Part shown: one piece after another, positions 39,001-42,000 of the stretch
Layout of the letters: each line of letters begins with the position of its first letter
Numbering within the stretch: position 1 is the first letter of the stretch
Virus record (IMG/VR): IMGVR_UViG_2531839666_000014
Source of the DNA: a virus
Taxonomy: Duplodnaviria; Heunggongvirae; Uroviricota; Caudoviricetes
DNA length: 64,000 nucleotides
Reading direction: 5' to 3' (one strand)
Position numbers: made by a program

Positions 39001-42000
39001 GCAGCGACCACGGATTTTCGAAATTCCTGTTCGGGCCAAAAAACGTCGATGCCTGCTGAACAAATTCAGTTCCCGCTTTCCCGGTAGCCTCCAGGTATCT
39101 TGCGTAACGCCTCACGCCATCCAGCACGACATCCGGTGACACCCCTTCGCGTAATCTGGCCCTCCAGGCATTGAACGCGGATTTCTTCGGGTTTGACCCT
39201 GCCCGATGCGGATATTCACGCCAGACCCGTTCGAACACGTCAGGATAATCAACTCGTCCCGCAGACGGTCCCGGCATCGCCCGGGTTAACCCAATCGGCT
39301 TCCCGCTCATCGCGGAATCGGCTTCAGGCTGCTGCGGTTGGTGTTGTTGCTCCGGTTCGACGAGCAGCACCTGCTGCACACAACGCCCGGAATCTGCTTC
39401 CGGTGTCATGCCAGCTGGTCCTGGACGTTCAGTCAGAACGGGACAAGAATCCACCAGTGGATCCGTGGCGATTTTTTCGCCATGGACCAGAAGGGTTTTA
39501 TCTCTTTCCTGTTCCTGTTCCTGTTCTTGGCTTGAAAGGGGCTCTGAAGGGGCTTCAATTTTCCGACATGATTCACGTCTGACATCCAGGTGGAAATCAT
39601 CCTTATATCTATCATAAAATGATGATAAAAAAGGATTTTCCAGCAACGCGGAATATTCATTTCTTACCCCAGCACAACGGTTATCGCCAGGTTTCAGCGA
39701 TTCACCAACCTGCCATGCTGCCATTTCATGCACCCATACAACCTCAGAATCATGGTCATAGCTGCAAAAACCAGCCTCGCAAGCCATTTGAAGCCCCTTA
39801 GAAGCCCCTTCAGGATCAAGTCCGGTTTCGTGAGCAATGTACAAAACAGGCAGGTAATAAAGGCCCAGCATATTGGAATGAGGCGAGGTCATCATATACA
39901 ACGCCACTACCATACATTCCGGACCAGACTTCCTTAGTTTTCGCCCTGTATCGCCTAACCAGAACTGAGGTGAAATTGTTGCGTAATTACGCATAGTCCC
40001 CTCGCATACAAGATTTACTCCATACCGCAGACGGTCCCGGTATCTCCCGGGTTAACCCAATCGGCTTCAGGCTGCTGCGGTTGGTGTGACTGCACATTGG
40101 TGTGACTGCACATCTTCACAGACGGTCCCGGTATCTCCGGGTTAACCCAATCGGCTTCAGGCTGCTGCGGTTGGTGTTGTTGCTGGCGAAATTCTTCCAG
40201 ATGTGGCAGAATTATTCCCGTGTATTGCTCCATGCCCTGCCTGAATATCAGATATTCATCAGGATTTGCTCAGAACGTCCGGCCCCAACCGGACGTTTTT
40301 TATTTGCATGAACGCGAATGGCATGCTGGAAAGCCCGGCTGATCGGACTGATATCAGATGCCATCTGGAACGCACATAAAATCGCCGCGATGTATCGCCA
40401 GTCGGTACGACTGACCTTCGATTCATGGCAGCCAATCATCTTCGCCAGTCCCCTTTGCGTCAGAACTGACAGGTTGATAAGTAAATCCGTTTCAGCGCGA
40501 TCGATATCGCGCTGCGACAGTTTGCTGTAACTTGTTTGTGACATTTGTTAATTTTCCTATATTGATATGGGGTTAAGCGGCAATCCCAATGGGTTTGCCA
40601 CTGATGTTTGCTCACCCTGTTAGAGGTGAACGACCAGCAATGTTAAAGAGCGGTGTTACTTATTCAGCCTGGTTCGGATGAGGAAACAGGTGCGGTAAGT
40701 CCGGGCGAATTTCGTAAGCCTTAACCTGACCATTGGTGGCATTAACGATAGCGAAAACTTTTTCAGGAGAAACTTTTCCGCCTCGCAACCATTTATGAAC
40801 AGCGGGCTGTGATACGCCGCAATCAGCTGCAAGTCGTTTTTGACTGCCAACAATATTCAAGGCTCGCTGAATCACTAAATTCATGAGCATACCTCTACAG
40901 CAAATAAAGCATAACCAAAAATAACATGAGTTATACAACAGAGCAATAACAATTGTTGTTTTACTTTTGATAACCGTGGTTATAGATTACAGGTATGAAA
41001 ACATTCGCAGAAAGACTAAATGCCGCCATGAGTTCAGCCGGGTTGTCACAAGCACAACTTGCAGACATGGTGGGGGTATCACAACCAGCCATACAAAAGA
41101 TGTCATCTGGTAAAACAACCGGATCACGTAAAATGGTCGAATTAGCCAACGCGTTAAGAGTTCGCCCTGAGTGGCTAAGCTCTGGTATAGGGTCAATGAG
41201 ACCACAGAGCGCAGAAGAGCCATCTAATGCTCGGGAATCATCTTTAAAAGCTATCGCCTGGGATGATCATCAAAATGATAATGACGAATTTGTTGCGCTC
41301 CCCCTTCTAAATATTTCACTTTCAGCTGGCGGAGGAAGTTGTGCATTGGAGGAGTCCGCAGAATTCTCTCTAGTTTTTAGGCGCTATTACCTGAAAAAAA
41401 TGGGAGTTCCAGAAAAAGCGGCAAAGTTGGTCAGGGTTGTTGGGCAAAGTATGGAGCCAACACTCCATGATGGTGATGTGGTGGGGGTAAACACGCAAGA
41501 TACGAGCATCAGGGATGGTAAAACATATGCAATTTGCCAAGCTGATTTGTTAAGGGTAAAAACGCTAATAGCCACACCAACATCGGTAATTATCAGATCG
41601 ATAAACCGCGAAGAGTATCCTGATGAAGTAATGAACAGAGAAGAATTCTACAAAAACGTAAAAATCATAGGACGAGTGTTCTGGTCATCACATAGCTGGT
41701 AATCAGACTCCAACTGAACTTTTGCTATAAGAACACTCACGAAGAACGGCCTTTTATTGTGCTCAATACCACCGATGGTAAACCATTCGCCAAGTAGCCA
41801 ATTCATAAAATGCCATTTCTAAATCCCCCGGCTCCAGTGCCGGGTTTTATTTACTTAATTACACAGTCGCATATCCTGAAGTAACACATCTATAGCTAAC
41901 TTCACAGCGAGATCATCCAATTCATCATGGTGAAGCACTCGGATCATTCCCGCAATAGCATCTGCTGAAATAGCTTCCCCAGTAGCAATAACCTCAAGCA

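Follow-up and report, generated by a model that had tools for sequence, protein, structure and literature searches.

The window considered here is a stretch of 64,000 nucleotides (nt) from a virus of the Caudoviricetes (IMG/VR record IMGVR_UViG_2531839666_000014), and includes the early-right operon of a lambdoid prophage, which is transcribed on the minus strand. Within this operon, the gene for an O-like replication initiator is separated from the upstream cII gene by a gap that contains two tandem repeat units, each of which is a copy of sequence found inside the initiator gene itself. A first-pass annotation of the window had described these units as copies of a segment of about 55 bp from the Q/E-rich linker of the initiator, and had suggested that they represent either origin iterons bound by the initiator or a recombination scar. 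The structure, variation and possible functions of these repeats are the subject of this report.

The initiator, unlike lambda O, is not a Phage_rep_O protein (no Pfam match; phrog_1701), and no Pfam or NCBIfam family was found for its N-terminal domain (N-domain). The C-terminal tail resembles DnaT, and a sequence search of the PDB returned a 25-residue DnaT-like C-terminal tail as the sole match. Across the cII-O-DnaC-like region, the DNA of the window is 98-99.9% identical to that of phages phiSTEC1589-Stx1c, POCJ13, 75/02 Stx and PhiR5_2, and the two-unit gap is common to all four. Shigella phage 75/02 (NC_029120) has been published as representative of a replication-region type of Shiga toxin (Stx) phages named 'Eru4' (Fagerlund et al. 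2022, PMC8951638). The Eru4 typing is gene-based, and the text of PMC8951638 makes no mention of repeats, the word 'repeat' being absent. In our literature search, only this gene-level 'Eru4' classification was found, with no description of an origin or of the repeat array.

Repeat copies in the O linker and in the cII-O gap

A repeat search of the window, followed by alignment of the direct repeats, identified one copy inside the O gene and two copies in the gap (Table 1). The 22-mer core, GAAGCCGATTGGGTTAACCCGG, occurs exactly three times in the 64 kb, and was not found in any of 100 shuffled sequences even when up to three mismatches were allowed. The duplication described in the first-pass annotation is thus real, and the gap, estimated there at about 250 bp, measures 253 bp. 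The unit is larger than the proposed 55 bp, at 63 to 66 bp, and its source is not the Q/E-rich run but the P/Q-rich part of the linker, located about 55 codons downstream of the QEQEQE run at O codons ~155-163.

Alignment of the O copy with both gap copies indicates that the gap units are arranged head-to-tail, with a period of 90/91 bp, and are derived from nearby source sequence. Relative to the O copy, the gap copies have two substitutions in common (GGGAGATACC versus GGGCGATGCC), and both are missing a 23-bp stretch (~39303-39325) that, in the O copy, lies between two GAAGCCGATT direct repeats. These shared derived changes place the gap copies nearer to each other than to the O source copy, and the 23-bp loss is, by the look of its endpoints, a classic slippage deletion between the GAAGCCGATT repeats. 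The junction sequence of the gap units also appears to resemble O-linker sequence (TGTGCAG...TCACACCAAC) from which 27 nt are missing internally.

Two further observations concern the O copy and its surroundings. The O linker at 39259-39325, when aligned with positions 1634-1700 of locus L004, differs from O157-type homologues by a compensated frameshift (MSGKPIGLTRAMPGPSA versus IQREADRVVPESTGQSV) that spans ~50 nt of otherwise similar DNA and falls in the same segment as that copied upstream, indicative of very weak protein-level constraint on the linker. In addition, the run of GAACAG hexamers that encodes QEQEQE (39500-39530), just downstream of the second iteron site discussed below, differs in length among near-identical phages (L001-L003 and L013-L015), with the result that the O gene is 1077, 1083 or 1089 bp long. 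This run represents a second small variable-number tandem repeat (VNTR) inside O.

Table 1. Position of genes, repeat copies and predicted regulatory or replication elements in the window.
Feature	Coordinates	Strand	Remarks
DnaC/IstB-like loader	38171-38911	-	after the O-like initiator
O-like replication initiator	38918-39994	-	phrog_1701 'DnaD-like helicase loader'
O-internal source copy	39259-39351	-	linker of the O-like initiator, O codons ~215-245, EQQHQPQQPEADSAMSGKPIGLTRAMPGPSAG
Candidate iteron pair 2	39536-39556	+	inverted relative to pair 1 in the window clade; O nt 441/452
AT-rich trough	39580-39669	.	GC 0.28-0.32; between the pairs, next to pair 2; candidate unwinding region
Candidate iteron pair 1	39790-39810	-	AAGGGGCTTC-N-AAGGGGCTTC on the sense strand, encodes EGASKGL; O nt 185/196
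cII-O gap	39995-40247		253 bp; 32 bp in lambda
ORF72	40015-40233	-	72 aa; phrog_2751, annotated 'hypothetical protein'; frame runs across both repeat units
Proximal gap copy	40025-40087	-	63 bp; its end lies 30 nt ahead of the O start codon
Junction of gap units	40081-40118	-	TGAAGA plus 16-bp tandem sub-repeat TGTGCAGTCACACCAA x2 (40081-40112)
Distal gap copy	40119-40184	-	66 bp, 1-nt deletion CCCGG-AGATA; abuts the pO-like region
pO-like region	40184-40247	+	the 64 bp of the gap nearest to cII; homology to the lambda cII-O spacer and to the first ~25-40 nt of lambda O
Putative -35 TGGCGA	40184-40189	+	
Putative -10 CAGAAT	40207-40212	+	preceded by TGG; aligns with lambda CATAAT
cII	40248-40544	-	Pfam Phage_CII, E = 4e-26
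oop-like intrinsic terminator	40272-40305	+	40272-40299 plus T-run; antisense to the cII 3' end; aligns with the lambda oop terminator
Cro/YdaS-like	40660-40887	-	
cI-like repressor	40995-41702	+	

Variation of the array and its likely origin at a mosaic joint

Variation in the gap was followed in a clade defined by an O N-domain at least 90% identical to that of the window, sampled as 78 E. coli genomes and 32 IMG/VR loci. The gap itself is present in 81 of 5426 complete E. coli genomes, most of which have two units, with a one-unit gap in at least six of the 81 (a span of 370-371 bp as opposed to 461 bp), as in G1/2 (L013). Similarly, 27 of the 32 IMG/VR loci have two units and four have one. 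One-unit gaps are found in L013, L023, L026 and L037, the last three of which have an O protein of 358-366 aa. Three units are present in TOE17 (L015), with a 90-bp period and an O protein of 360 aa, and in 23CRST047 (L014), where the period is 113 bp and the 23-bp stretch has been kept. An intact O gene of 358-366 aa therefore accompanies one-unit and three-unit variants, and the number of 16-bp sub-repeats is also variable among relatives, at one to four. The exact 22-mer core had no match among the GTDB species-representative genomes, indicating that the array is a strain-level feature and is not species-wide. Since the Stx phage of the O104:H4 outbreak is of the Eru1 type (PMC8044961), matches to the array in O104:H4 genomes presumably derive from a different prophage. 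The cII-O gap of Eru4-type Stx phages is thus a hypervariable locus, and a possible typing marker.

The gap copies and the O copy also exchange sequence with each other. In L014 the O copy and all three gap copies read GATGCC, whereas in the window the O copy and both gap copies read GAAGCC; such lineage-specific sharing indicates that the dispersed copies co-evolve within a genome, that is, they undergo concerted evolution. A more drastic exchange is seen in E. coli SW071619 (L016), where cII is followed by a hybrid unit with a gap-type 5' end and an O-type 3' end, fused to the C-terminal region of O, such that the N-domain is gone and a frameshifted C-terminal stub remains. To judge from its junction, L016 arose when a gap copy crossed over with the O copy, so that the whole N-terminal domain was deleted. 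Because the gap copy is a direct repeat of the O copy, the two can delete the 766-bp segment between them, which holds the N-domain and the probable origin, and a deletion of this type can inactivate the replication module of the prophage. Thus, expansion and contraction of the array between one and three units, its exchange of sequence with the O-internal copy, and deletion of the N-domain are all observed in natural variants.

Beyond the clade, the comparison included relatives with the same type of O N-domain at 53-78% protein identity, namely O157:H7-type prophages (469 E. coli genomes at 60-80% nucleotide identity), Klebsiella, Acinetobacter and Ralstonia phages, and phage Fraca. In these relatives the linker sequence is present once inside O, or is lacking, and there are no copies upstream of O; for instance, the O157-type, Klebsiella and Fraca relatives have zero upstream copies, as opposed to one to three within the clade. 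The first-pass annotation had proposed a comparison of this kind. A different arrangement is found in Tritos-type phages, which share with the window only 38918-39399 (linker and C-terminal domain, ~82% identity), and have an unrelated N-domain; in Tritos itself, the linker contains four GAAGCCGATT motifs. The presence of the linker in Tritos with another N-domain, and its absence from Klebsiella phages with the same N-domain, indicate that it travels with the C-terminal module and not with the DNA-binding domain.

We consider it likely that the gap repeats represent a variable tandem duplication scar at a mosaic joint, and not a working part of the origin. Of the two explanations offered in the first-pass annotation, it is the recombination scar that agrees with the data, in that the units are decayed, tandemly amplified copies of the O linker, are present as one, two or three units, and co-evolve and delete with the O copy. 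Intergenic VNTRs, or minisatellites, and duplication scars occur at mosaic joints of lambdoid phages, and the array resembles these in its head-to-tail units taken from neighbouring sequence, its copy-number polymorphism, its concerted evolution, and the deletions between dispersed repeats. It differs in that the unit is a fragment of the initiator's own interdomain linker and, together with the internal copy, brackets the origin-specificity module. In kind, the feature is nonetheless ordinary, being another repeat scar in a mosaic phage genome.

A possible route to this structure can be read from the junctions. The linker may act as a joint that fuses different N-terminal (origin-specificity) modules to a shared C-terminal module, and Campbell-type (single-crossover) or unequal recombination at this joint would have left a linker copy between a retained lambda-like pO/oop region and the N-domain now present. 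An event of either type would leave the incoming N-domain bracketed by direct linker repeats, matching the structure seen. The upstream copy would then have lost 23 bp by slippage between its two GAAGCCGATT repeats, and other later events would be a 27-nt internal deletion at the 5' edge of the unit (TGTGCAG...TCACACCAAC), the 16-bp duplication, and head-to-tail amplification of the unit at a 90-bp period. The rearrangement in L016 would represent the reverse of the joint crossover.

Several points weigh against a scar without function. No zero-copy clade member was found among the 78 E. coli genomes and 32 IMG/VR loci, and it could be that one or more units are needed, or simply that the clade is young. 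Two units are by far the commonest state, which could reflect selection rather than clonal descent. In most variants an open reading frame (ORF) continues without interruption from shortly after cII almost as far as the start of O. Moreover, the steps of the putative history are deduced from junction sequences alone. A search for exchange of the bracketed cassette found no array upstream of a different N-domain, every array locus having either the same N-domain or its deletion. No coding, RNA-structure or known-motif function was detected for the array at the sequence level, which is absence of evidence only; DnaA-box, IHF, Chi and cII-site motifs were all absent when the array was scanned for them. 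It seems quite improbable that the array is not inert, with unit number tuning expression from pO/oop or of O, with the units titrating a replication factor, or with the repeats serving as a device that excises or swaps the origin module. If the array were such a recombination device, the inducibility of Eru4-type Stx phages would be affected.

A candidate origin inside the O gene

The most likely position for the origin is not in the gap but inside the O gene, at 39536-39810, where AAGGGGCTTC iteron pairs are found together with an AT-rich stretch. Four occurrences of the 8-mer AAGGGGCT fall within 275 bp of O, and the rest of the 64 kb contains just one more. The AAGGGGCTTC units are spaced 11 bp apart and form two phased pairs, and the segment at 39580-39669 is the only deep AT trough of the O gene. 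In lambda, the origin consists of four O-binding iterons and an AT-rich region inside the O gene, and the arrangement in the window is similar, with short phased repeats and an AT-rich stretch in coding sequence at the end of the N-terminal DNA-binding domain. The lambda-style origin within the initiator gene that was envisaged in the first-pass annotation thus holds in spirit, but at a different sequence from the one that had been singled out.

The iteron pairs were compared among the window and loci L004, L005, L007, L009, L011 and L050-L129. The AAGGGGCT motif is found at the same gene positions in every sampled relative except that from Ralstonia, which has one-mismatch versions, and it tracks the O N-domain across relatives. 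Among 11 sequences with identity as low as 60%, six of the eight third-codon positions of pair 1 do not vary, which is the strongest synonymous-site conservation in the first 430 nt of O. In the case of pair 2, the orientation differs between clades. In the O157-type, Klebsiella and Fraca genes the pair is direct and specifies a second EGASKGL. The window clade, Acinetobacter and Ralstonia have the pair inverted, with EAPSEPL or similar as the peptide; this difference indicates that the DNA motif is kept while the encoded peptide changes. The AAGGGGCTTC pairs are therefore strong candidates for the origin iterons of the Eru4-type replication module, with predicted binding by the initiator.

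Other arrangements of iteron-like units were noted in individual phages. In Acinetobacter phage A785.1 (L009), three more AAGGGGCT-type units are located at nt -46 to -20 from the O start, upstream of the ribosome-binding site. In Tritos (L012), a different 8-mer, ATGTCACG, is present as two pairs ~260 bp apart (O nt 137/158 and 407/418) inside the unrelated N-domain; the layout is that of the window, and the motif covaries with the N-domain. In G1/2 (L013) and IMGVR_UViG_2630968933_000007 (L078/L036), an 11-bp gain of an iteron unit (CAGAGCCCCTT) at pair 2, O nt ~452-474, brings the number of units to three and shifts the reading frame of O, which is thereby truncated at 192 aa. Such variants indicate that iteron number is polymorphic and that its change can inactivate the initiator.

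Relocation of the likely origin to a specific 275-bp segment of the initiator gene provides a more useful lead than the array. The module is widespread, being carried by O157:H7 prophages and by Klebsiella and Acinetobacter phages as well as by the Stx1 phages of E. coli and Shigella, and the placement of the candidate origin matters for the study of induction and replication of Stx phages.

Possible functions of the gap repeats

The view that the gap repeats are themselves origin iterons, or auxiliary initiator-binding sites that act in titration or handcuffing, as with P1 incA, draws on several features. The repeats adjoin the initiator gene; every unit contains a perfect 10-bp palindrome, GGGTTAACCC, whose three occurrences in 64 kb are all within the three repeat copies; the GAAGCCGATT motif in every unit agrees with the inverted iteron GAAGCCCCTT in 8 of 10 positions; and no zero-copy variant was seen within the clade. 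In addition, the extra and genuine AAGGGGCT iterons just upstream of the O gene in A785.1 indicate that upstream iterons do exist in the family. The sequence hallmarks of iterons are lacking from the array, however. Its units are 63-66 bp long, have a 90/91-bp period and number two in the window, in place of short (about 11-22 bp), helically phased repeats. GC content is 0.55-0.62 across 40030-40179, compared to 0.43-0.48 in the flanks, with no adjoining AT-rich region. Upstream of O, the window contains no match to AAGGGGCT with up to one mismatch. The number of copies varies freely between one and three, and neither the upstream position nor the number of units is conserved among phages with the same initiator N-domain. 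The linker sequence also fails to covary with the DNA-binding domain, as it is present in Tritos, where the 8-mer is ATGTCACG, and absent from Klebsiella phages with AAGGGGCT, and the palindrome GGGTTAACCC is not conserved in O157-type linkers, which read GGGTAGTCCC. The gap repeats are unlike the lambda origin, being long and rich in GC, lying outside the gene, varying in number and showing no linkage to the DNA-binding domain. In the P1 plasmid, the incA repeats reproduce the origin iterons and are bound by RepA; the gap repeats are similarly located beside the initiator gene and outside the presumptive origin, but differ in having no candidate iteron motif. With a better candidate inside O, an iteron role for the array, as put forward in the first-pass annotation, is most improbable. 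It is likewise very doubtful that the array owes its existence to ORF72, either as a real small gene with a repeated motif or as a frame whose translation matters, for instance in cII-O coupling or in preventing Rho-dependent polarity. ORF72 is annotated as a coding sequence in all related phage and E. coli records and forms its own PHROG, a weak AGG is positioned 6 nt upstream of its ATG, and the 90-bp period keeps the frame open in one-, two- and three-unit variants (42, 72 and 102 aa). An alternative ORF72 frame ends at a stop codon overlapping the O start (ATGCGTAA), a geometry that fits translational coupling. Against this, no Pfam or NCBIfam family matches ORF72, and its homologues among 5.8 billion proteins fall into only ten clusters, all of them E. 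coli array variants that differ in unit number or by frameshifts, with lengths of 42-102 aa and two alternative C-termini. The length of the frame ranges from 37 to 102 aa, and length and C-terminus shift with every indel. In L014 the ORF reaches a stop after 41 codons, with ~270 nt of the gap left untranslated, and comparison of the first 28 codons between the window and L014 revealed 0 synonymous and 5 nonsynonymous differences, against 8 and 4 in the adjacent cII (Fisher p = 0.03). The ORF72 sequence is a frame-shifted mosaic of O-linker fragments, and an ancestral full-length gene starting MEQYTGIILPHLEEF was not found by tblastn or by large-database searches with ORF72. As the first-pass annotation had supposed, the ORF is present but, in our judgement, spurious, with no coding constraint and no homologues outside the array; it is probably not a gene but a by-product of the repeat scar. 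Its public annotation as the phrog_2751 'hypothetical protein' is a point of caution for annotation of these phages.

Finally, the array may be considered as a cis-regulatory spacer, located upstream of the pO -35 element and in the 5' leader of O, whose length or bound factors would tune antisense control of cII or expression of O, and hence the lysis-lysogeny balance of this type of Stx phage. Alignment with lambda and phage PA28 extends over the cII 3' end, the antisense terminator and ~45 nt past the cII stop; past this stop there are 26 of 42 ungapped matches to lambda, a value reached by 0 of 100,000 shuffles. The lambda counterpart of 40184-40247, comprising the cII-O spacer and the first O codons, carries the oop promoter pO. 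The best interpretation of the region in the window is that a lambda-type pO region has been retained, together with a stub of the lambda-type O gene that was replaced; the region would specify a predicted antisense RNA of ~85 nt starting near 40219. A consensus promoter scan called no pO, and no promoter in the array, and pO is thus a promoter predicted by homology. The likeness to lambda oop/pO lies in the cII 3' end, the antisense terminator and a -10-like hexamer at the homologous position. The two differ in that pO in lambda is inside the 5' end of O, whereas in the window the first few lambda-O codons remain as intergenic DNA and are followed by the array. The array starts exactly where the lambda pO homology ends, at 40184, and ends 30 nt before the O start codon, and every sampled clade member keeps at least one unit. 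A LexA-box-like sequence, CTGTGAAGATGTGCAG (CTGT-N8-GCAG), is also found at the unit junction (40106-40121), although this match is at chance level, with about 0.6 expected by estimate in the region scanned, and is probably fortuitous; it occurs in variants with two or more units, one-unit variants lacking it. Other observations also argue against a regulatory spacer: the array is not AT-rich, and hence not UP-element-like; RNA folding of the whole gap found no significant structure (z = -0.16 versus shuffles), and Rfam at a permissive threshold had no match within 38000-42000; neither the number of copies nor the length of the unit (90 versus 113 bp) is constant; and recent common ancestry accounts equally well for the retention of one unit. 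A regulatory role of this type is unlikely, and the duplication scar remains the preferred reading. The lack of a zero-unit member, the predominance of two units, and the position of the array between pO and the O ribosome-binding site nonetheless make a modest role as a cis-regulatory or translational spacer possible.

A further promoter-like site, TTGTGA-16-TATATT, was noted at the cII 5' end within 40520-40563 on the plus strand, with TTGC-N6-TTGT before it at 40522. Its position and form are as expected for a cII-activated promoter of the pRE type.

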